DNA from: a virus
IMG/VR virus record: IMGVR_UViG_3300008448_000014
Coordinates: 32,001-96,000 of that record
DNA length: 64,000 nt
Strand: one strand, 5' to 3'
How positions within the stretch are numbered: position 1 is the stretch's first letter; each line of letters opens with the position of its first letter. The notes beneath the pieces were generated by a model. The model was not told where the DNA came from. It saw nothing but the letters and a program-made list of their open reading frames with translations, and searched no databases. This document shows positions 2,569 through 48,759 of the stretch, one piece after another. The translations under genes and the position numbers were made by a program.

Positions 2569-3313
2569 ATTTATATTTCCATTTAAATCCACAAGATTGT
2601 TTTTGCCTACCTTTTAACGTTGCAGGTATATCTCCTTTAAAAAATTTTTTAGCTTCTGTTACAGTTTTCCATTCTTTAATAAAATTATCATTTAAATCAT
2701 ATTGTATTATAGGTTTTGAAACTCTTTCAGAAACTTTTTTTCTATTCTCAATTGACATACCTTTACCTATATTACCTAGTTTAATTTTTTCTTTAGTAAT
2801 TTCAGATAAAATTCTACCTTTTTTAGCTTTGCTCATTTTTTCACGAGCCTCTTTTGACATTTTTTTACCTTTGTTACCTTGAGAAATTTTTTTCTTAGTA
2901 TCTTCAGTATGTTTTTTATTTAAAAAATGTCCTACATGTCCTAATAATGTTTTAGATATTTTATTTTTAGTTTCTTGTAAAATTATTCTATTACTCATTT
3001 TTTTCTTTGTTTCCTCGCTTACTATTCTAGGTAAAATATCTGTTTCTTGTAATCTACAATTTAACCCTTTAGTGGAAACAACATTAAATAAATCTTGATA
3101 ATATCTTTCTTTAAGATTTAATTGATCATGTTTACATTCTTCAATTATTTCAAAAATATGATTTTCTACGCCATATTTTAAAAAGCTTTTATACAAAATA
3201 GGTTGATTTTTACAAGAAAGATTTTTATAATTTTTAAATCTTTTTTCAATATTAATACTTTGCCCAATGTATATTTTACCACTTGGACTTGTGATTTTAT
3301 AAATTCCTATCAT
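2561..3313 (-). CDS. GIY-YIG homing endonuclease with NUMOD3-like repeats and a C-terminal NUMOD1-like domain
   Basis: MIGIYKITSPSGKIYIGQS; repeated H/SEETKKKIS; PIIQYDLNDNFIKEW...GFKWKY; likely start ATG 3313. Confidence 0.92.
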   Translation of the reverse strand: MIGIYKITSPSGKIYIGQSINIEKRFKNYKNLSCKNQPILYKSFLKYGVENHIFEIIEECKHDQLNLKERYYQDLFNVVSTKGLNCRLQETDILPRIVSEETKKKMSNRIILQETKNKISKTLLGHVGHFLNKKHTEDTKKKISQGNKGKKMSKEAREKMSKAKKGRILSEITKEKIKLGNIGKGMSIENRKKVSERVSKPIIQYDLNDNFIKEWKTVTEAKKFFKGDIPATLKGRQKQSCGFKWKYKYD

Positions 3314-3343
3314 TTTGTATAAAATTAATTTTATACAAAAATA
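3313..3343 (-). promoter_or_regulatory. TATTTTTG -7 box overlapping a perfect 28-bp palindrome that reaches the start codon
   Basis: ttttgtataaaatt|aattttatacaaaa at 3313-3340; box at 3336-3343. Confidence 0.7.
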
Positions 3344-3388
3344 AGTAATTAATATCAATATTTGGACAAAGTATTATTTTTTTTTTAT

Positions 3389-3415
3389 CTACACTTGTAT
3401 TTCTGTTTTTGTCAT
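3389..3415 (-). pseudogene. Probable orphan 5' stub of the SF2 helicase gene
   Basis: MTKTEIQV*; its ATG overlaps the TGA of ORF 3412..3630 (ATGA coupling) and it resembles the helicase start TKKDLIQ. Confidence 0.45.
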
Positions 3416-4357
3416 AATTCTTTGTTATAATATTCTTCTTCAAAATGTTCATATAAAGCCATCAATGTGTAAGAATGTTTTTTTGTTAACCATTCAGCAA
3501 AATGAATTACTTTGTTATCAGTATTAATTTTTTCTAGTTCTTTTGCTTTTTCAATAATTGGTTCATCATCAGCTATACTCACACCAGTTAATGTTTTTAT
3601 ACCATCAACTACATATTCTACTGCTGTCATAACTTCTTAGTTAAATAATATTTTAAATCTAATGCTCTTCTTTTAACAGCACCAGACATTCTGGTATTGC
3701 TAATATCATGTTTACCTATAACTATTCCATTATAACTACTAACATATCCTGTTGTAGCTTTAGCAACTGTTATAGCTTCATCCACTGTATCTGAGAATCT
3801 TTTGATTTCAGATTTAATTTGTATTAAGTCTTCTAGTTTCATTTTTTATTATATTTTATTAATTTCTATTTTGTTTTAAATTATTTTTCCATTCTATCCA
3901 AAAACCTATAGCTACTAATATATTCATACCAAAAGAAGCAATAATTTCATGTAAGTCTTCATATATATTCATAGTTAAGTGAACATGTCCAATTACCCAA
4001 AAAGGTACTGATAAATTACTTGCTGTCCATGTTATAAAAAATATAATAAATTTTTTCATTTGTCTCCTTTACTAATCAAGTAATACCATAACCAAATCAC
4101 TTTTGGCCTTATAAACTCATAACCTATCCATATTAATAAGTATTTCATTCTTCTTTGTTTTTTATATATCCATATACATTAAAACCTTCTTCATCTTCAT
4201 ATTTAGTACCATCCTTACGAACTCCCCATTTATACCACATAGCCATAATTGTTGATTCATTAGTTTTACTCCATTTATCATCTTCAAACCTGAATTGTTC
4301 TTTGTCTGATTTTTCTTTAAATAAAGGAACAAATCCTTCTGGTTTTTCTTTTCTCAT
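3412..4357 (-). other. Cluster of small hypothetical CDSs (3412-3630, 3627-3842, 3859-4059 membrane protein, 4145-4357)
   Basis: ORF track; overlapping stop/start codons; 3859-4059 has two hydrophobic segments. Confidence 0.65.
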
Positions 4358-5427
4358 TATTGTAAAAAATATGATTTGTTAATAATACTTTCATAATCTG
4401 CATCTGTAATATCTCTTTTTCTAGGCAATTCCTTGAAAATTCCTAATTTTCCTAAAAATGCAAGTCCAATTCTAATATCATCTTCACCATATGAATTTTT
4501 CAATAATCTTAAACTTCTGAAATATTTACCACCATACTCATCTTTGAGTTTGTTAAGATCATATCCAGAAGTATCTTCCACTTTATATCTCACAGGATCA
4601 AATAGAGCAAGAACAACATCTGCATCATTTTGTGTGCTAGATGAATCTGAAAAATCTTCTAGTTGAGGTTCTACATCTCCTGCTTTAAGTCTCATTGGAT
4701 TAGATATACTTCTATTAAACTGACTAACAATTACAGGAGTATAACCAAAGAAATCTCTAACATATTGAAGTTCATTTGACATTTTATCAATTGCTTCTTT
4801 TTTTGTTGGCTGATCTTTTGTTGTTTTCAATAATCCTATATGGTCAATAATAACAATAGTTATTACATTAGGATCATTAGGAACATATACTTTGCTATAT
4901 TCATCATCAGGATCTTTTTGTATTATTTTACCATTCTTTAGAGCGTGTGCTCTTAGTTCTTTGGCTATACCTACAGGATTCTCTGGACCATCTATAACTG
5001 TAATAACATCTTTCATCTTATCCATATACCATTGATAGGAAAGAAATAATTTATGTTCATCTTCAGTCATTTTTTCTGTCCAACCTAATAGTCTATTAAC
5101 AGACATACTTATACCATGATCAAGAAATATCTTTCTACACACCCATTTTGCATACTTGTATGTAGAACTTCTCTCCATTGATCTATATATAATCTTTAAC
5201 TTTATATCTGTATTATTCTTTTTAGATATATACCAATCAAAAGGATTAAGAACAAAACAATCATCTATAAAAGAAGTTTTACCACTTCCTGTATTACCAC
5301 CAATAAGAAACATCATAGACTTCCTAATACCTATATATCTATTAAGTCTATCAAATCCCATAGGAATACCATTATTGTTTCCTTCCAATCCTTTATCAAC
5401 TTCTCTCTTTAATTGCTCAAAACTCAT
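4357..5427 (-). CDS. DnaB-like (SF4) replicative helicase
   Basis: GGNTGSGKT, SMER, IIDHIGLL, VSQFNR, QNDADVV, LKNSYG motifs; TATTTTTG box at 5451-5458 upstream. Confidence 0.88.
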   Translation of the reverse strand: MSFEQLKREVDKGLEGNNNGIPMGFDRLNRYIGIRKSMMFLIGGNTGSGKTSFIDDCFVLNPFDWYISKKNNTDIKLKIIYRSMERSSTYKYAKWVCRKIFLDHGISMSVNRLLGWTEKMTEDEHKLFLSYQWYMDKMKDVITVIDGPENPVGIAKELRAHALKNGKIIQKDPDDEYSKVYVPNDPNVITIVIIDHIGLLKTTKDQPTKKEAIDKMSNELQYVRDFFGYTPVIVSQFNRSISNPMRLKAGDVEPQLEDFSDSSSTQNDADVVLALFDPVRYKVEDTSGYDLNKLKDEYGGKYFRSLRLLKNSYGEDDIRIGLAFLGKLGIFKELPRKRDITDADYESIINKSYFLQ

Positions 5428-20169: not shown

Positions 20170-20460
20170 GGTTTTTTAAATTTAATTTCTAATGATTCCA
20201 TTATTTCATTAAAATCTTTTTGTTTTAATGTTTTAGGTTTGTTAATATATAATACATGTGTAGAATTTCCTTCTTCACTAATAAAAGATACAATACCTGT
20301 TTCTTTTTTTAATAGCACTCTTTTAGTTTCTTGTAATAAACTCATAATTTATTTTTAAATGTATTTAATAATATTTTGTTAATAATTGGTACTATTAAAA
20401 AACATATTATAATAGCTAAACTTAATCCTTGATTTTCCATAATTTAAACTTTTTAAAAAG

Positions 20461-20482
20461 AAAAAGCCCTATTTCTAGGGCT
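20461..20482 (-). terminator. Intrinsic terminator
   Basis: agccct/agggct stem plus a T-run on the minus strand, just after ORF 20493. Confidence 0.65.
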
Positions 20483-20670
20483 AATTCAAGAATTAATAAC
20501 CTAATTGTTCTAAAGATAACTTATCAGCTGTCACCTCGTATACTCCTTTTGTTATTTTACAATCAAACCAAATTTTAAATTCATTTGCTTTTTGTTTAAA
20601 CTGATAAAAAGCTGTGGGTTGCATTTTAATTTTTTTCATGTGTTCTATGTTTAATTTGTGATTAAGTGTT

Positions 20671-20706
20671 AAAAAATCCCTACACACTTGAGACATGTGT
20701 AGGGAA
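20671..20706 (-). terminator. Intrinsic terminator closing the ncRNA candidate
   Basis: tccctacaca/tgtgtaggga stem followed by T6 on the minus strand. Confidence 0.75.
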
Positions 20707-21300
20707 ATGGTAAAATTTTACATTCAAAGAATGCAAGCCTCATATGTATGAGCACTTATCAGTTAGTTGTGTATAAGTTAATCAAACCAATGATTACTAT
20801 TTTAGCACCTTCTTTCTTATATAAACTGCCTATTATGGTACCTAAATATAAGAGTAAGGTCACGTAGTTTATTGTAATAAGAAGTAAATGTTTCATTACA
20901 TCCCAATAGAACTACTTGCTGAGAACTCATTACGTGAGTGTGGAGCCATTCATTATCCACCATAACTAGCACTTTCCTTTCTCAAGGGAACTCACGTTCT
21001 AGGATTACTCCTTGCTACTCTATAGGGTTCTTATGGTTTCCTATTTCACATCTCTCTGGCAATTCAGGATTAGTATCTTTATGTAAATAACAACTTCATA
21101 GATGCTACGTTAACTGTAGAGAAGTTTAATCATCATTTTTATTTACAAACCATCAATGTTTAGGGCTAACTTCTATCAGATTATCAGTTCTGACGCTTTA
21201 CACAGCTTAGCTATTGTTTGAGAGTTTTTCATTACAACTCACAAGTGTTGACTTTTCTTCAGTCACCAATAGCACCCATTTAACCTTGGGTACACCAGGA
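20707..21300 (-). ncRNA. Large (~600 nt) structured non-coding RNA candidate
   Basis: No ORF of 60 aa or more; visibly less AT-rich than the flanks; many nested inverted repeats; terminator at the 3' end. Confidence 0.65.
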
Positions 21301-21304
21301 TTTA

Positions 21305-21658
21305 TTATTCTTCTAACAAAGCAGCTTGTTTTCTTAAGAAATCTAGCTTAGCATTGTGTAATTCAAGAGCTTCTTCAGCATCAACTAATTTGTTTTGAGC
21401 TAATAATAAATTAGAAATATAATAATTTCTATCAGTGATTAAATTACCATTGTTTAATCTAGCAAGTCTTAATGACTCTTTTGCTTCTTCTACAGCATCT
21501 TCTAAAGATATAGTATCTCCTGTTAATGATGCAATTTGTGTTTTGAAAGCTGAATCAGCTTGTCTTAAGATTTTTTGTGCTGTTGCTTCTGCATCATCTC
21601 CTTTAAGTAAACAAACAATTTCTGTTACAAATGATTTTACAATTTTTTTAGTTGTCAT
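21305..21658 (-). CDS. Coiled-coil hypothetical protein immediately upstream of the ncRNA candidate
   Basis: ORF track; helical, heptad-like composition. Confidence 0.75.
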   Translation of the reverse strand: MTTKKIVKSFVTEIVCLLKGDDAEATAQKILRQADSAFKTQIASLTGDTISLEDAVEEAKESLRLARLNNGNLITDRNYYISNLLLAQNKLVDAEEALELHNAKLDFLRKQAALLEE

Positions 21659-21663
21659 GATTT

Positions 21664-22953
21664 TTAAAATTTAAATTTGTTATTAATTGTTTTTGTGCTT
21701 AATTTAACACTAACAGAATGCACATTTTCTATTAGTGGTTTTGTTTTTACTGTTTCATATGAATCATGTACATATACAGAGGATTCTTTTTTAATAATAT
21801 CATATACATCTATAGGATGTACATTATCATAAAATTGTTGAAGAGTTATTTCTGTATACCCAACTGGAACACTATTATTCCAATGTGTATATGTTCCATC
21901 ATGTGCATCAGAAAGTAACCAACCTGTAAAAGCAATACTTTGTTCAAAAAAGTTAGGTTGTCTTTTTCTCCATTTATTTAATACTTCTTGATTACTTGAT
22001 GTAATTTTTAAACACCATTTCTTTGGTAATATAGATAAAGTGGCTACAAACTGAGCATCATATGCTTCTTTAGAAGAAGGTTTGAAACAATCTTTTTCTT
22101 TTCTTACTTGTTGACCACCTTTACCATCTCTTTTATCAAATTGTAGCCTAAAATAACCATTATTAACATCAAAAGAATCAATTTTATATATTCTTCCTTT
22201 TTTAGTAATATTCCAACCATAAGGTACTTCAATACATTCTACATATTCAGGAATACTAATAGATGTATCTACAGAAACTTTATCAGAAACTAGTTCCCAC
22301 TTTGATAAATCTAGTGGATTTTGTATAATCATACCATTATTACCTTTAGGAGTTGTATTTAAAACATAAGTTTTTAATCTTTCTAATAAAATTTTAACTG
22401 TTTCACCTTTTTTCAGACCTGTATTATCAGGATTATCAAATAAAGCTTTAATAGTTCTTCCATTGTAACTTTCAGATGTTGTTTTACCAAGAAAATCTTT
22501 AGATAAAACTACACTTGTATAATAAAAACTGTGATGATTTTTTCTAGCTACTGTCCATTCTTTTCTTGTTCTATTAAACCCAACAAAATACCATTCAGTA
22601 TTGGCAGTTTTAGTAGCATACTTATAATAATTAGGATTAATATTTTCTTCTTTTGATTCTAAATAATCAAATACTTTTTTAGAATCAGTCTCAGAGCTAC
22701 ACTCTATTAATAAATTTCTATCTATATTTTCCATACTAACTGTTTTTGTTACAAATTTAGATAATTCTTCCCACTTATATTCAGTTTTTGAAGAACTTTG
22801 ACAAAACCAATAAAATTTACTGTTCCAACCAACAAAAATAGCATATGTACTTATAATTTCATTAGATGTTCTATTTTCTTTTAAATATGTTATTAAATCA
22901 TTTTGGTTTTTTCCATCAAATTTAAAACAACCTTGAATTGGAAACTCTTTCAT
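21664..22953 (-). CDS. Multidomain hypothetical protein
   Basis: ORF track, 429 aa. Confidence 0.75.
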   Translation of the reverse strand: MKEFPIQGCFKFDGKNQNDLITYLKENRTSNEIISTYAIFVGWNSKFYWFCQSSSKTEYKWEELSKFVTKTVSMENIDRNLLIECSSETDSKKVFDYLESKEENINPNYYKYATKTANTEWYFVGFNRTRKEWTVARKNHHSFYYTSVVLSKDFLGKTTSESYNGRTIKALFDNPDNTGLKKGETVKILLERLKTYVLNTTPKGNNGMIIQNPLDLSKWELVSDKVSVDTSISIPEYVECIEVPYGWNITKKGRIYKIDSFDVNNGYFRLQFDKRDGKGGQQVRKEKDCFKPSSKEAYDAQFVATLSILPKKWCLKITSSNQEVLNKWRKRQPNFFEQSIAFTGWLLSDAHDGTYTHWNNSVPVGYTEITLQQFYDNVHPIDVYDIIKKESSVYVHDSYETVKTKPLIENVHSVSVKLSTKTINNKFKF

Positions 22954-31934: not shown

Positions 31935-34522
31935 TGGCAATAATTAGATATACAAAAGATGCAACTATAAGGTATGCATACTTAAACATTTTTCCTGATC
32001 AATTTAAGACTGAAAAAGAAAAAAAAGATGAGAGTTGGATAAAAAATACAATGGACTATTTTGCCAACAAAGCTTATGCTGAATATGTCAAAAATAGAGA
32101 CACATTTGTGAAGAACTATGACCTTGTAAAAGGTATATTACATCAAGAAGATTTTTATCAAGAACCTGATGTAAAAAGTTTTACAGATATATTAGAAGCA
32201 GATCTTGCACTTCCAGCTTATGTAAAACACTATTCTATTGTTACCACTCCTATTAATGAACTTATTGGTGAGATTAGTAAACGTCCTGATACTTACAGAG
32301 TTAAAGCATTTGATGATGATAGTCAAGCAGAAGAATTACAGTTTAAAACTGAAACTCTTCAAAATTATATTATGGCTCAAGCCAAACAAAAGATTATTGA
32401 AAAAATAACTTTGTCTGGACAAGAGATGCCAGAAGAAGAAGAATTACAACAAATGACAATGGAGCAAGTAAAAGAACAATTAGATTCTTATACATCTATT
32501 GCAGAGAAATGGGCTAACCATATTCTTACATGTCAAAAAGCTGAATTTAATCTTAAAGAAAAATCAGAAGATGCATTTAGAGACTTGTTAATTTCTGCGA
32601 GAGAATACTATCATATATATGAAGATAATTCAAAACTTGGTTTTAATATTGAAGTGGCTAATCCAAAGAACACTTGGTTTTTGTCTACACCTGATAGAAA
32701 ATACATATCAGATCCAACTGGTAGAGCTCAAGGAGCCTATGCTGCTGGTACTGTACAAGTTATGGAATTATCTGAGATTATTGAATCTATTCCAGATATT
32801 ACTAAGGAAGAGATTGACCACTTAAGAAGTTCATTGCAAGACTATGGACTGATTAATGTACGTGAATCTAATCTTGGAAATCCTAATGCTCCAGAAGGTA
32901 TAGACTCTGTAAATTATGATACATATGATCCATTAGTGTTACAAACAAGAATGATGATTGAGTCTGAGATGAAAGAGAACAATGATGGACTTAAAGATTT
33001 TTTAGGACTAACAAACAATGTTAGTAGCTTTGGGTATAAATATGTTGTTGTAAGAGCTTACTGGATAAGTAAAAAGAAAATTGGTAAGCTGATATATTTA
33101 GATGAATTAGGTAATGAGCAGTCTACACTTGTAGATGAAAATTACAAGTCTGGAACAATGCCTACACAACAATCATTAGAGTGGGGTTGGATTAACCAAT
33201 GGTATCAAGGAACAAAGATTGGTCCAGATATATATCACATTAAACCTTTTAACTTATTAAACTACTGTCCTATTATAGGAACAGTTCATGAAGTTAAAAA
33301 TACAGAAGCAAGAAGTCTTATAGATATTATGAAACCTTTCCAGGTTATATATAATGTTTGTATGAATCAATTATTTAAACTACTTGAAAAAGAAGTTGGT
33401 AAAGTACAACTTATGTCATTAAGACATATTCCTATTCCTAAAGATGGAGATGCACAAGATGCTCTTGATATATGGGAAATGGAAGCACGTAACAGAGGAG
33501 TTGTATTTATTGATGATTCTCCAGAGAATTTAAAATCTCCTAGTTCATTTAATCAATTTACATCTCTTGATCTTACAAGAACACAAGAAATACAATCAAG
33601 ATATACATTAGCACAACAAATTAAAGCTGAGTGTTGGGAGTTAATAGGTATGTCAAAACAACGTATGGGCTCTGTAGCAGCATCAGAAAGTGCTACAGGT
33701 GTAAATACTGCTGTACAACAAAGTTATTCCCAAACAGAGCCTCTATTTGTGGCACATGAATATGTAATGGGACAATTGTATCAAGCTATTATAGATGCTG
33801 CTCAATATATAGAAAGTGATAAACCACAAAGTACGCTATCATATATAACATCAGAAGGACTTTCTGCTTTTATACAAGTGAATGGTAATGATCTTAAGTT
33901 TAGAGATTTAAAAGTGTTTACAACTAATAGACCAGAAGACACTCAAATGTTTAATGAACTTAGACAGCTAGCTCAACCTTTAATGCAAAATGGTGGAAGC
34001 TTATATGATGTTATTGAATTGTATGGTACTAAGTCTATGAGAGAAATGAAGAAAGTGTTCAAAGATCTTAGAGACCAACAACAAGCTCAACAAGAGCAAG
34101 CAATGCAACAAAAACAACAACAACTTGATCAACAAAATGAACAAGCACAAGCTGCATTACAACAAGCTGCTCAAATGGCACAAGAACAACAAGCTAATGA
34201 AAATTATCAAAAAGAACTTGATAGACTTTCTAGAAAAGAAATTGCTATTATACAAGCTTCAGGATTTGGTAAAGTTGGTACAGAAGATGTTAATGAAAAC
34301 TCAGTTCCAGATATAATGGAAATGAATAAGCTATCCCTAGATCAAGACAAAGCTGCTAAAGACTACCAAACTAAAATGGCAGATATATCTTCTAAGAACA
34401 AACAGTTTGATACTAAAATGGCTATTGAACAAGAGAAGATAAAAGTAGCTAGAGAGAACATGCAAAATGATTTAGCAGTGGCTAAAGAAAATGCAAAAGG
34501 GCGAAATAACAAAAAATTGTAA
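31934..34522 (+). CDS. Portal protein
   Basis: 862 aa, directly after TerL; PINELIGE, SKQRMG...ESATGV; Gln-rich C-terminal coiled coil. Confidence 0.88.
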   Translation: MAIIRYTKDATIRYAYLNIFPDQFKTEKEKKDESWIKNTMDYFANKAYAEYVKNRDTFVKNYDLVKGILHQEDFYQEPDVKSFTDILEADLALPAYVKHYSIVTTPINELIGEISKRPDTYRVKAFDDDSQAEELQFKTETLQNYIMAQAKQKIIEKITLSGQEMPEEEELQQMTMEQVKEQLDSYTSIAEKWANHILTCQKAEFNLKEKSEDAFRDLLISAREYYHIYEDNSKLGFNIEVANPKNTWFLSTPDRKYISDPTGRAQGAYAAGTVQVMELSEIIESIPDITKEEIDHLRSSLQDYGLINVRESNLGNPNAPEGIDSVNYDTYDPLVLQTRMMIESEMKENNDGLKDFLGLTNNVSSFGYKYVVVRAYWISKKKIGKLIYLDELGNEQSTLVDENYKSGTMPTQQSLEWGWINQWYQGTKIGPDIYHIKPFNLLNYCPIIGTVHEVKNTEARSLIDIMKPFQVIYNVCMNQLFKLLEKEVGKVQLMSLRHIPIPKDGDAQDALDIWEMEARNRGVVFIDDSPENLKSPSSFNQFTSLDLTRTQEIQSRYTLAQQIKAECWELIGMSKQRMGSVAASESATGVNTAVQQSYSQTEPLFVAHEYVMGQLYQAIIDAAQYIESDKPQSTLSYITSEGLSAFIQVNGNDLKFRDLKVFTTNRPEDTQMFNELRQLAQPLMQNGGSLYDVIELYGTKSMREMKKVFKDLRDQQQAQQEQAMQQKQQQLDQQNEQAQAALQQAAQMAQEQQANENYQKELDRLSRKEIAIIQASGFGKVGTEDVNENSVPDIMEMNKLSLDQDKAAKDYQTKMADISSKNKQFDTKMAIEQEKIKVARENMQNDLAVAKENAKGRNNKKL

Positions 34523-47817: not shown

Positions 47818-48759
47818 ATGAGTTACTATTATAGATATAATTTTGTTAGTCCAGATCCTGTTTTTGCAATAGTAAAAGAGGAACTTAAAAGTTACTTTGA
47901 TACAGGTGCAATAGATGATTTATTGTTTCCTACATACTTAGATAAATGTTTACAGAAATTAGGAAGATCTTCTTATATAATTACAACAACAGTATTACAT
48001 ATAGAGAATTATGAAGCAAGACTTCCTGATAACTTTTTTGCTGTAAGAGAAGCTTGGATGTGTTCTGAGATTCCTTTAACATCTTATCAAGATGCTAATT
48101 CATTTTATTCTCAAGCAGAATCTTCTACAACAATACAAGTAAGTCCATTAACTATTGGAGGAACACCTTGTAATAATACACAATGTCAAAATCCACAATG
48201 TGATGGTACATGTATGCCTGAACTTATTCAAGCAGTGTATAAAACAAACCACACTACTCCAAGAGCATATAGAAGAAACTTTCTATTAAAACCAGGTAAT
48301 ATATCTAATGATCAAAATTGTAATTTAGAATATAATAGAGAATATATACCTCATTCATCATCATTAGATTCTTTTGATATACGTGATAATAAATTTGTTA
48401 CAAACTTTAAACAAGGTGTTGTACATCTTCTTATGTATGCTACAGAATATGATGAAATAGGAAATCAAATGATTCCAGATAATTATCGTATAAGAGAATA
48501 CATAGAAGCTTTTATTAAATTTAAAGTGTTTGAAACATTATTTAATCAAATTAATGATGAAACATTTAATCAAATTGAAAAAAAATTAATGATGTATAAA
48601 CAAATGTCTGATGAGGCATTCATTATGGCAAGCATTGAAATTAAAAAACAAGACTCTTGGGCTAAACAAAGAAGAGTTGAAAAAGATTTAAATAGATTTA
48701 ATATGTATGAATTACCAAGATCTAATTATAGTAGATATGGTAGACGTAGAAATAATTAA
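47818..48759 (+). CDS. Tail ring/connector protein
   Basis: HIENYEARLPDNF, TNFKQG.V.L.Y, D..G..MIPD; position before the muzzle gene. Confidence 0.55.
   Translation: MSYYYRYNFVSPDPVFAIVKEELKSYFDTGAIDDLLFPTYLDKCLQKLGRSSYIITTTVLHIENYEARLPDNFFAVREAWMCSEIPLTSYQDANSFYSQAESSTTIQVSPLTIGGTPCNNTQCQNPQCDGTCMPELIQAVYKTNHTTPRAYRRNFLLKPGNISNDQNCNLEYNREYIPHSSSLDSFDIRDNKFVTNFKQGVVHLLMYATEYDEIGNQMIPDNYRIREYIEAFIKFKVFETLFNQINDETFNQIEKKLMMYKQMSDEAFIMASIEIKKQDSWAKQRRVEKDLNRFNMYELPRSNYSRYGRRRNN

Follow-up and report, generated by a model that had tools for sequence, protein, structure and literature searches.

The window analysed here is a 64,000-nt stretch of viral DNA (positions 32,001 to 96,000 of IMG/VR record IMGVR_UViG_3300008448_000014) from a crAss-like phage of ~114 kb (113.9-kb genome). 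On its minus strand, two small genes are separated by a block of ~630 bases at 20671-21304 in which no ORF reaches 60 aa; the ORFs that do occur there (39-51 aa, both strands) are of chance size. The block starts 1 nt past the TAA (21305-21307) of a 117-aa gene and closes, ahead of a 48-aa ORF, with an 11-bp, 5-GC hairpin followed by a run of T, read on the minus strand. In these respects the locus is as the original prediction had described it, namely an ORF-free RNA directly behind the 117-aa gene with a strong terminator of its own, and all the stems it had listed are found where it placed them. The GC-rich stem and the U run on the transcribed strand that characterize Rho-independent terminators lie at 20705-20677, and a terminator scan returned 3 terminator-like sites against 0.4 expected. 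The G+C of the block is 0.36-0.39, compared to 0.23-0.30 in its surroundings. From 21700 to 20660 the minus strand lacks the Bacteroidota-type promoter box TAnnTTTG, the sole type searched, and ARAGORN detects neither tRNA nor tmRNA genes in the window or anywhere else in the 113.9-kb genome. The overall layout, from the 5' end of the transcript, is as follows.

20671-21304, minus strand: RNA block, ORF-free, ~630 bases, a U-M-core-T chain plus terminator
21218-21297, minus strand: module U, a leader of ~80 nt with an enclosed hairpin pair and a 5' hairpin
21272-21293, minus strand: U hairpin GUACCCA/UGGGUGC
21247-21266 and 21218-21244, minus strand: the next two hairpins of U
21267-21273 with 21210-21216, minus strand: U enclosing helix GCUAUUG/CAAUAGC, whose 3' strand overlaps the first M helix
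21167-21215, minus strand: module M, a 48-nt three-way junction (R2 model, covariation)
Within M, minus strand: helix P1, UAGCU/AGUUA
21195-21206, minus strand: M hairpin A, GCU-GUGUAA-AGC
21176-21193, minus strand: M hairpin B, UCAGA-ACUGAUAA-UCUGA
20802-21167, minus strand: core RNA, 366 nt, from AGCCCUAAACAUUGAUGGUU to GAAGGUGCUAA (17-mer, R1 model)
20739-20797, minus strand: module T, with a covarying hairpin, tmRNA-adjacent elsewhere
20777-20797, minus strand: upstream hairpin of T
20753-20772, minus strand: T single strand ACACAACUAACUGAUAAGUG
20739-20752, minus strand: T hairpin CUCAU-ACAU-AUGAG (ctcata/tatgag in the original prediction)
20720-20734, minus strand: small hairpin separating T from the terminator, GCAUUC-UUU-GAAUGU, placed from sequence only
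20671-20705, minus strand: intrinsic terminator, stem 20705-20677 with 11 pairs (5 GC) and a UUUUUU tail to 20671

Comparison with shuffled sequences had been proposed as a check on the RNA. The block does fold modestly better than its shuffles (z of -2.9 and -3.1 on the two strands, 20 shuffles each), but equally so on both strands, so that folding energy alone is not decisive. What settles the matter is covariation among homologues, the second check proposed, and this is present. Double changes occur in 15/16 nested pairs of the central domain of the core and in 11/22 pairs of its 3' domain, with 0/500 shuffles reaching as many in either case, and in 5/5 pairs of M hairpin B. Paired cells make up 98.7%, 89% and 95.9% of these three regions, respectively, against 33-47%, 39-51% and 23-42% with slid partners. 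On this comparative evidence the block is a genuine structured non-coding RNA read from the minus strand.

Judged from its relatives, the block is also a chain of at least four modules (U, M, core and T) and not the single molecule of ~600 nt that had been proposed. That is, the same elements are found apart and in other combinations in other phages, and in some of these the core edges are directly tRNA or tmRNA genes, so a single RNA is not supported. Module U, which accounts for the gcaccca/tgggtac and gctattg/caatagc stems first noticed in the sequence, also lies upstream of M, the core or another RNA at other loci (L004, L040, L059, L075/L151, L110), and its hairpin 2 shows compensatory change (GACU/AGUC in the window, CUCU/AGGG elsewhere). 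Module M is recognized in the window by AUAGCUAAGCUGUGUAAAGCG, the covarying 5-bp hairpin and the UAGAAGYUA that closes P1; the R2 model scores 74 bits at 21165-21215, the single copy in the genome. Its exact 18-mer occurs in 43 IMG/VR stretches (5 are chance matches in coding sequence), and an 88% match lies directly 5' of an annotated tRNA in Flavobacterium phage elemo. M was not found among 151 sampled Flavobacteriales genomes and 3 others, for the part of the candidates that was scored. Across 30 distinct contexts, M is followed by the core in 11 and by ARAGORN tRNAs within 12 nt in 6; in the remainder, tRNA-like genes, a hairpin plus tmRNA (a short hairpin lying between M and the tmRNA gene) or a terminator come next. 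The contexts in which a terminator alone follows (L025, L037, L039) suggest that M is possibly a product in itself. Module T stops 3-5 nt short of the 5' GGGG of tmRNA genes at several loci (L004, L007, L014, L038, L058, L102, L117, L157) and precedes tRNA-like genes at two more (L111, L127), with its hairpin covarying between CCCUC/GAGGG, CUCGU/GCGAG and CUCAU/AUGAG. Taken together, these comparisons show U, M and T as independent structured modules that elsewhere precede genes for tRNA, tmRNA or the core.

Given this company, M and T could be relic leaders of lost tRNA/tmRNA genes, now functionless. T is normally found against the 5' end of a tmRNA and M is often next to a tRNA, the source genome has neither gene, and T in the window is trailed merely by the small hairpin and the terminator, with no tmRNA after it. 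However, the helices of both are intact: M has a G-U in place of a G-C in P1, a perfect 5-bp hairpin B and its 74 bits, and the T hairpin shows compensatory changes. The terminator-only copies of M again suggest a standalone product, and we regard decay to functionless remnants as distinctly improbable.

The core belongs to a widespread family of phage RNAs that has so far gone uncatalogued (of the phi14:2 g004-g005 type, see below), as its distribution shows. The core 17-mer, AATGAGTTCTCAGCAAG, is present in at least 119 IMG/VR stretches; both end motifs are found in 75, which reduce to 64 distinct cores of 203-510 nt (among the matches listed). Because homologues were gathered by exact words, the segments matched by these words look more invariant than they are. 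In the window, the R1 model matches once in the genome, at 21021-20915 (76.4 bits, E 1.6e-15), and the marks of the central domain are all there: Pc loop AGUAAU, Pd around Pe loop CUUGAGAAA, then AAUGAGUUCUCAGCAAG. So are the Pa loop YUAAACAUUGA (21148-21167) and, as the 3' end, GUGACCY...RGGUGCUAA with its AGCA/UGCU closure (20802-20863). A search of 596 Gb of genomes gave 45 matches to the 17-mer, which is about chance level, and 7 are real by R1; the match at L182 was rejected as a coding false positive. The real matches come from MAGs labelled Clostridium, Saccharibacteria, Peribacteria and Nitrososphaerota, labels that are not trustworthy as hosts since the contigs resemble binned phage DNA. 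Against cultured phages, blastn with the region or the core returned M in Flavobacterium elemo phages and phi14:2 at E 0.4; matches to Synechococcus phages fall in a variable arm and were set aside as chance. Core motif strings had no match in the literature text searched.

The helices of the core were assigned as listed here.

21148-21167, minus strand: Pa, hairpin AGCC/GGUU with conserved loop CUAAACAUUGAU and compensatory stem variants
21082-21147, minus strand: Pb, a peripheral arm of variable length, UGUAAAUAA/UUAUUUACA around AACUUC/GAAGUU
20999-21073, minus strand: Pc, CUA..UAG helix with conserved loop AGUAAU
20932-20997, minus strand: Pd, ACGUGAGU/ACUCACGU, enclosing Pe and Pf
20975-20989, minus strand: Pe, with loop CUUGAGAAA
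20940-20960, minus strand: Pf, a variable hairpin
20926-20931, minus strand: AAUGAG, invariant, preceding UUCUCA
20979-20984 with 20920-20925, minus strand: proposed pseudoknot, Pe loop UGAGAA with UUCUCA
20802-20920, minus strand: 3' domain of the core (closing helix, Pg, GUGA linker, Ph)
20917-20920 with 20804-20807, minus strand: closing helix of the 3' domain, AGCA with UGCU
20864-20915, minus strand: arm Pg
20808-20859, minus strand: arm Ph, with the GUGA linker between Pg and Ph

The Pa loop YUAAACAUUGA is nearly invariant while its stem appears as AGG/CCU, AGGU/ACCU, ACUCA/UGAGU, CCGCU/AGCGG, GUGG/CCAC, AGUG/CACU and AGC/GCU. Pa rests on these compensatory variants, because an automatic stem finder (4.35 bp vs 4.01 bp in controls) is too permissive with G-U pairs. 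The idea that CAUU in the Pa loop makes a tertiary pairing with AAUG was dropped, since the loop of L056 has changed without compensation. Pb is the tgtaaataa/ttatttaca stem of the original prediction; its base covaries (UGUAAA/UUUACA, GAUAGU/ACUAUC, UGUGAA/UUCACA, UUGCAAUG/CAUUGCA) and the arm is missing from the smallest members among the matches listed (L061, L088, L143). In simple copies Pc is a 5-bp helix with double changes in 5/5 pairs, and at one of its positions U-G dominates (17/28), which fixes the strand. The window copy carries a branched insert of ~55 nt in the 5' strand of Pc, starting AUCCUGAAUUG, and this AUCCUGAAUUGACAGGAU type of insert recurs in L019, L033, L047 and phi14:2. 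Pd and the hairpins inside it, Pe and Pf, correspond to the acgtgagt/actcacgt stem and its two enclosed hairpins; double changes occur in 7/7 pairs of Pd (99.5% paired) and in 3/4 pairs of Pe. The pseudoknot is likely, but proposed only. In the window its two segments complement each other, and pairing holds in 98.8% of cells, with the 3' strand fixed by the search word; under the same constraint there are 0 double changes, and the 3/6 pairs that vary do so only to G-U wobbles. In the 3' domain, Ph of the window has a compensatory CCU/AGG instead of CCC/GGG. AGAAAGAGGGUG resembles a Shine-Dalgarno-like complement to the 16S 3' end; this was dismissed as coincidence, since the segment is mostly paired in Ph.

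As shown by this covariation, the predicted fold of the core is compact and multi-helix, with nearly invariant loops and joining strands. We are close to certain of the identity and anatomy of the cluster and its core.

Extreme conservation of loops and junctions (UAAACAUUGA, AUAAAGAUA, AGUAAU, CUUGAGAAA, AAUGAG, GUGA) on helices that are free to vary is what a ribozyme might look like, and the family is located at processing junctions. The core might then be self-processing or trans-cleaving, and shape the ends of adjacent stable RNAs. We think this unlikely: the core bears no likeness to Rfam ribozyme families, host enzymes suffice for tRNA and tmRNA processing, and the invariance is partly an artefact of the word-based collection.

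At the gathering score, Rfam 15 has no match in the window and only tmRNA and tRNA in 10 homologous loci, where GOLLD was also unmatched. With E up to 10 (region 20400-21700 and two minimal members), only chance snoRNA/sRNA matches and the neighbouring tmRNA/tRNA appear, so that the suggested ROOL/GOLLD membership finds no match at either threshold over 20400-21700. Since no Rfam family matches, the alternative offered with it, a new class of large phage RNA, was right in direction. M, core and T are likewise not tRNA or tmRNA by Rfam, and ARAGORN is negative. The earlier conclusion that the block is not an intron holds, as there is no Rfam group I/II match and what follows the core on its 3' side changes from locus to locus (tRNA, tmRNA, T module or coding gene).

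Like the core, ROOL and GOLLD are large structured RNAs of phages/prophages to which no function is assigned and which often lie beside tRNA genes (Kretsch et al., 10.1101/2024.12.08.627333; Weinberg et al. 2017, PMC5737381). They nonetheless differ from the core family, which is smaller (203-510 nt among the matches listed), has no sequence/structure match to them, and comes from AT-rich contigs with cultured hosts in the Bacteroidota rather than Firmicutes-type hosts. The shared niche, along with the single terminator that closes the block and the lack of a promoter between its parts, would suit a single giant RNA, ornate in the manner of ROOL/GOLLD, covering the whole ~630 nt. This is very unlikely in our view, because U, M, core and T are separate and reordered in other phages, the core alone is bounded by tRNA/tmRNA genes at L048, L100, L078 and L133, and Rfam has no ROOL or GOLLD match.

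ROOL, GOLLD and OLE have reportedly been found of late to form RNA-only multimeric assemblies. By analogy, the core might assemble in the same way and have a structural or sequestering role. It occupies the same niche (phages, beside tRNA genes), its fold is ornate with variable peripheral arms, and its phi14:2 relative is highly abundant. On the other hand, no self-complementary conserved loop was found in the core by eye and the core is far smaller than ROOL/GOLLD, with a minimum of 203 nt among the matches listed, which leaves multimerization another low-probability reading.

Other stable RNAs offer partial parallels. In the tRNA cluster of phage T4, the stable RNAs C and D (species 1 and 2) have no assigned function, are co-transcribed with tRNA genes and are freed by tRNA-processing enzymes; they resemble tRNAs and are ~120-140 nt long, whereas ARAGORN and Rfam detect nothing tRNA-like in the core. 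Punctuation by tRNA-like elements is known from mascRNA at the MALAT1 3' end and from the mitochondrial tRNA punctuation model. M and T may be likened to these as small folded border elements that could recruit RNase P/RNase Z. Unlike mascRNA, M has no T arm and no match to a tRNA model, and it also precedes genuine tRNAs, which need no extra signal.

A cultured phage carries a relative of the core. On Cellulophaga phage phi14:2 (NC_021806), R1 matches at 3107-3208 (71.2 bits), inside the g004-g005 gap, and the motif set is complete, beginning with AGGUUAAACAUUGA (2913), ending with GAGGGUGCUAA (3360) and containing the AUCCUGAAUUGACAGGAU insert of Pc. This gap is transcribed above most coding genes, early and without declining; the study describes the transcribed gap only, with no family, structure or function (Drobysheva et al., 10.1101/2020.03.07.982082). 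The motif and model matches show that a region of phi14:2 reported as an abundant, stable early transcript carries a relative of the window core. In both crAss-like genomes the core lies directly behind a small gene. They differ in that the phi14:2 copy lacks M, U and T while the window copy has all three, and in that phi14:2 has a tmRNA gene (4031-4500) ~670 nt downstream while the phage of the window has no tmRNA.

The neighbourhood of the core is otherwise variable. A partnership with the 117-aa protein had been suggested, together with a check of linkage to ORF 21305..21658; the linkage fails, with that cluster present at 6/76 loci among the matches listed. No protein cluster at all occurs at more than 10/76 loci among these matches, and the proteins encoded alongside have no Pfam match and fall only into PHROGs without an assigned function. 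Recognized same-strand tRNA/tmRNA genes lie within 300 nt at 13/75 loci, and 44/75 have none in the available DNA (both among the matches listed). Where they are close, they can abut the core: a tRNA end is the core start in L100, in L078 and L153 a tmRNA begins 7 nt past the core, in L133 a tRNA begins 14 nt past it, and tRNA-like genes stand at both core ends in L048. In keeping company with phages and with tRNA/tmRNA genes, the core family resembles ROOL and GOLLD. A strict link to phage tRNA/tmRNA function is not required, because the source phage lacks either gene.

The position between two small same-strand genes and the failure to find a promoter of its own might also indicate a cis-acting block that serves the 117-aa gene as its 3' UTR, leads into the 48-aa ORF downstream or works as a DNA element (origin, hairpin promoter). 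This is extremely improbable given the strong terminator before the 48-aa ORF, the unrelated gene neighbours, the strand-specific G-U and U-G pairs and the accumulation of the phi14:2 relative as a stable RNA.

Overall, we lean slightly towards the block being an untranslated stable-RNA cluster made of separately evolving RNA cassettes, from which the core would be excised as a trans-acting RNA. The cluster would be transcribed by read-through from the upstream genes, as suggested by the lack of a Bacteroidota-type promoter box before it, and transcription would end at the terminator. The core would be excised as a stable RNA by host tRNA-type processing, since tRNA/tmRNA genes directly abut it in some phages, with M and T serving as processing/stabilizing leaders or as small RNAs in their own right. 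The mature core may then act in trans on a conserved target through its invariant unpaired nucleotides. The most likely target would be the translation, tRNA or ribosome-rescue machinery, in view of the family's tRNA/tmRNA company. The function, target, processing sites and mature ends given here for the core are all inferred, and we hold this mode of action only tentatively, as somewhat more doubtful than probable. A bolder version, which we rate as rather unlikely, is that the core is a new functional RNA class (catalytic or an RNA-only assembly) that manipulates host translation, tRNA or ribosome rescue, with U, M and T as a portable 'punctuation' kit. If this is true, phages could use the kit to put together and process operons of stable RNAs, and the kit would persist even after the loss of all tRNA and tmRNA genes.

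Structured RNAs that are both large and highly conserved are, to our knowledge, rare, and nearly all of the well-studied ones do something fundamental. The core family is worth pursuing for its occurrence on at least 119 uncultured-phage contigs, its well-supported fold, its absence from Rfam and its cultured relative; the phi14:2 RNA is among the most abundant viral transcripts of that phage, which, growing on Cellulophaga baltica, is a cultured and genetically approachable representative. M, U and T are concrete, testable elements, and their being common to the core and to phage tRNA/tmRNA genes points to a shared processing/expression logic for phage stable RNAs. Should the family act on translation or ribosome rescue, it would represent a new phage route to host takeover.

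A published catalogue that lists 10,006 candidate structured RNAs from viruses (PMC10690425) may include pieces of the core family. The sequencing runs compared with the window are contigs, so that stretches they leave uncovered carry no meaning, and X16 and X20 match conserved parts of relatives only. In a small freshwater RNA library, one contig, which may derive from DNA, is identical to window positions 20920-21157, inside the core, and gives a weak hint of expression.

The block at 20671-21304 (minus strand) lies between the TAA (21305-21307) of a minus-strand gene for a 117-aa protein and a small minus-strand ORF. It proved as free of genes as the original prediction had it: no ORF of at least 60 aa crosses it, and both strands hold only chance-sized ORFs of 39-51 aa. 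Its G+C content is 0.36-0.39 vs 0.23-0.30 in the surrounding background. All the predicted stems were found in place, as was the strong terminator at its 3' end; a terminator scan gave three terminator-like sites for 0.4 expected. Folding energy decides nothing here, being equally good on both strands (z -2.9 and -3.1); the expected advantage over dinucleotide shuffles is thus present, if modest, but not strand-specific. A listed 67-aa ORF (20493-20696, minus strand) would start within the terminator hairpin, and the in-frame ATG at 20637-20639 (MKKIKMQ..., 48 aa) is a more plausible start for the small ORF beyond the block. A similar 'cacagaacacATGaaaaaaa' start is seen downstream of the RNA in two relatives (L020 and L045; such handles denote homologous loci, mostly from IMG/VR).

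The block consists of four structured RNA modules and a terminator. The single molecule of about 600 nt first proposed did not hold up, because U, M, the core and T are separate modules; a reading as one giant RNA is unlikely.

Features of the block and its 3' flank
21218-21297: module U, upstream of M
Module M: 48-nt three-way junction of P1 (UAGCU/AGCUA), hairpin A (GCU-GUGUAA-AGC) and hairpin B
21167 to 20802, minus strand: core, 366 nt in the window copy
Pa: 5' hairpin of the core, with a nearly invariant loop
Pb: variable arm of the core, missing from the smallest members
Linker AUAAAGAUA: in the core, after Pb
Pc: core helix with loop AGUAAU; the window copy has a branched insert of about 55 nt in the 5' strand
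Pd: core helix enclosing Pe (loop CUUGAGAAA) and the variable hairpin Pf
AAUGAG-UUCUCA: strand after Pd, its second half complementary to the Pe loop
3' domain of the core: closed by AGCA/UGCU, with arms Pg (optional) and Ph
20739-20797: module T, downstream of the core; a hairpin, ACACAACUnnnUGAUAAGUG and a covarying hairpin with loop ACAU
20705-20671, minus strand: terminator, an 11-bp hairpin then TTTTTT, 3' end of the block
20482-20465: second terminator, after the small ORF

The core is one member of a large phage family, covariation-supported but uncatalogued, of which a cultured relative is abundantly expressed. In an alignment, loci that carry M followed by GGYUAAACAUUGA alternate between near-identical blocks and variable inserts for about 220-470 nt, up to a terminal GAGGGUGCUAA. 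At least 119 IMG/VR stretches contain the core block AATGAGTTCTCAGCAAG; 75 loci have both core end motifs and give 64 distinct cores of 203-510 nt. M is absent from most of these 75 loci, which makes the two modules independent of each other. The decisive evidence for the core structure is covariation. Across 28 sequences of the central domain (Pc, Pd and Pe), 98.7% of cells are paired vs 33-47% when helix partners are slid, and both bases have changed in 12 of 12 pairs of Pc and Pd and in 3 of 4 pairs of Pe; the covariation asked for at the outset is thus seen in 15 of the 16 nested pairs. The observed covariation values were reached in none of 500 shuffles. In the 3' domain 89% of cells pair and 11 pairs have changed at both positions (the window copy of Ph carries a compensatory CCU/AGG); for Pa and Pb there are several compensatory variants, independent of one another. 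The U-G pairs place the RNA on the minus strand of the window. The Pe loop and UUCUCA would form a putative pseudoknot, judged from complementarity to a 3' strand that was fixed by the search word.

R1, a covariance model of the central domain, scores 76.4 bits (E 1.6e-15) on the window and finds the core once in the genome. A weak R1 match at 48022-48125 (minus strand; 20.9 bits, E 0.014), inside the gene for a 1925-aa virion protein, has many non-paired positions and was judged a chance match. Locus L200 has a complete core followed by a partial second central domain (Pd and Pe only).

The Rfam search that had been called for gave no gathering-score match anywhere in the window (Rfam 15). 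At E up to 10, the region 20400-21700 gave chance matches only and two minimal core members nothing recognised; in ten homologous loci, only the tmRNA and tRNA alongside were found. Hence the RNA is not ROOL, GOLLD, an intron, RNase P RNA or another catalogued family. The original prediction had excluded an intron, rightly, and had suggested a large structured phage RNA of a known or new class: the new-class direction stands, and membership of ROOL or GOLLD falls. The core motif strings were not found in the literature searched; fragments of the family may be among the 10,006 viral structured-RNA candidates catalogued in PMC10690425.

The cultured relative is Cellulophaga phage phi14:2 (NC_021806), where R1 matches 3107-3208 (71.2 bits, E 4.7e-15) and the full core motif set spans 2913-3360, directly behind g004. 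It shares the window's type of Pc insert, as do other members. Transcription at its g004-g005 and g005-g006 junctions lies above that of most coding genes, and both are already on at the first time point and do not fall off later as other early transcripts do (10.1101/2020.03.07.982082). The core family has thus been seen before as an abundant stable RNA, its family and structure being undescribed. The g005-g006 junction contains a tmRNA gene (ARAGORN, 4031-4500; tag GSSVQKLAMVA), so that the second 'long non-coding RNA' of phi14:2 is the site of that tmRNA.

Module M was met as the sole short blastn match among cultured phages: 21215-21167 (49 nt) has 88% identity to Flavobacterium elemo phages, where the match falls in a gap without annotation that directly precedes an annotated tRNA. 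An 18-mer of M, GCTAAGCTGTGTAAAGCG, occurs in 43 IMG/VR stretches, five of them coding chance matches. In M, 95.9% of cells are paired vs 23-42% with partners slid, and hairpin B has double changes in all five pairs. R2, a covariance model of M, scores 74 bits on the window copy, which is single in the 113.9-kb genome; 151 sampled Flavobacteriales genomes gave no M, with only part of the candidates scored. Among 30 distinct contexts, M is followed by GGYUAAACAUUGA... (the core start, as in the window) in 11 and by an ARAGORN tRNA at most 12 nt downstream in six; the other 13 have tRNA-like genes uncalled by ARAGORN, a short hairpin and tmRNA, or a terminator alone (L025, L037 and L039). Several loci have a Bacteroidota-type -7 box (TAnnTTTG) about 12 nt ahead of M, which puts M at the 5' end of the transcript there. 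In five loci (L007, L028, L032, L040 and L149) a -7 box upstream of M or core is set within an inverted repeat (CCCTGTGAAnTATATTTGCAGGG), which is a recurring promoter of these RNA genes across different phages.

U recurs with compensatory changes in L004, L040, L059, L075/L151 and L110, preceding M, the core or other RNA. P1 of M shares bases with the 3' strand of U's outer stem, and the two structures are therefore in competition for them. In eight other loci 3-5 nt separate the end of T from the 5' GGGG of a tmRNA gene, and in two T precedes tRNA-like genes; in the window, only a small hairpin and the terminator follow it.

The genome is terminally repetitive and about 114 kb long. A DNA polymerase and many small genes lie on its minus-strand arm, and terminase, portal, major head protein and the 1925-aa virion protein on its plus-strand arm, a layout like that of crAss-like phages such as phi14:2. 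No Pfam family matches the genes beside the RNA, and the PHROGs that do are all of unknown function. The suggested partnership with the upstream protein found no backing, as the 117-aa protein lies beside the RNA in just 6 of 76 loci; no protein cluster does so in more than 10, so the RNA has no conserved protein partner next door. A cis-regulatory role of the block is likewise unlikely. Of 75 loci, 13 have a recognised tRNA or tmRNA on the same strand at most 300 nt from the core and 24 at most 1.5 kb away; 44 have none in the available DNA. Abutment can be tight: a tRNA ends at the first base of the core (L100), a tmRNA begins 7 nt past the end of the core (L078, L153), a tRNA begins 14 nt past that end (L133), and tRNA-like genes stand on both sides (L048). 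This defines the functional unit as Pa through UGCUAA and implies that tRNA-processing enzymes cut it out in those phages.

ARAGORN finds no tRNA or tmRNA in the block or the whole 113.9-kb genome, yet this phage retains M and T, leaders of such genes in relatives. M and T are possibly relics in a tRNA-less phage; against this, their helices are intact. M, U and T may rather be leaders, processing signals or small RNAs themselves. No Bacteroidota -7 box was found on the minus strand from 21700 to 20660, so the block is probably transcribed by read-through from the genes before it, as in phi14:2. A small freshwater RNA library has one contig that matches 20920-21157 exactly, within the core, only a weak hint of expression; the flanking gene is covered by contigs of a DNA run. 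Host tRNA-type processing would then excise the core as a stable RNA, which could act in trans via its invariant unpaired nucleotides, most likely on translation, tRNA or the ribosome-rescue machinery. The core may alternatively be a ribozyme or an RNA-only assembly.

Further observations concern the tRNA-like and tmRNA genes near these RNAs. Genes starting GUCAGGUGGCGGAAUUGG... often come after M (directly in L032, L035, L005, L015 and L006; also in L034 and L038) and are missed by ARAGORN or called 'tRNA-Stop' or 'tRNA-???'; they may be atypical, intron-containing or suppressor tRNAs. A tmRNA also lies just downstream of the core in L004 (2992-3315), L007 (9030-9417) and L012 (1367-1698), and in phage tmRNAs near the core, visual inspection suggests unusually long open frames ahead of the tag end. 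Behind the core of phi14:2, 3361-3590 holds three T-arm-like repeats (AAGGUUGAAAUUCC, AAGGUUGGAUUCCUU and GUAGGUUUCAAUUUCC), possibly remnants of decayed tRNA genes or else tRNA-like pieces.
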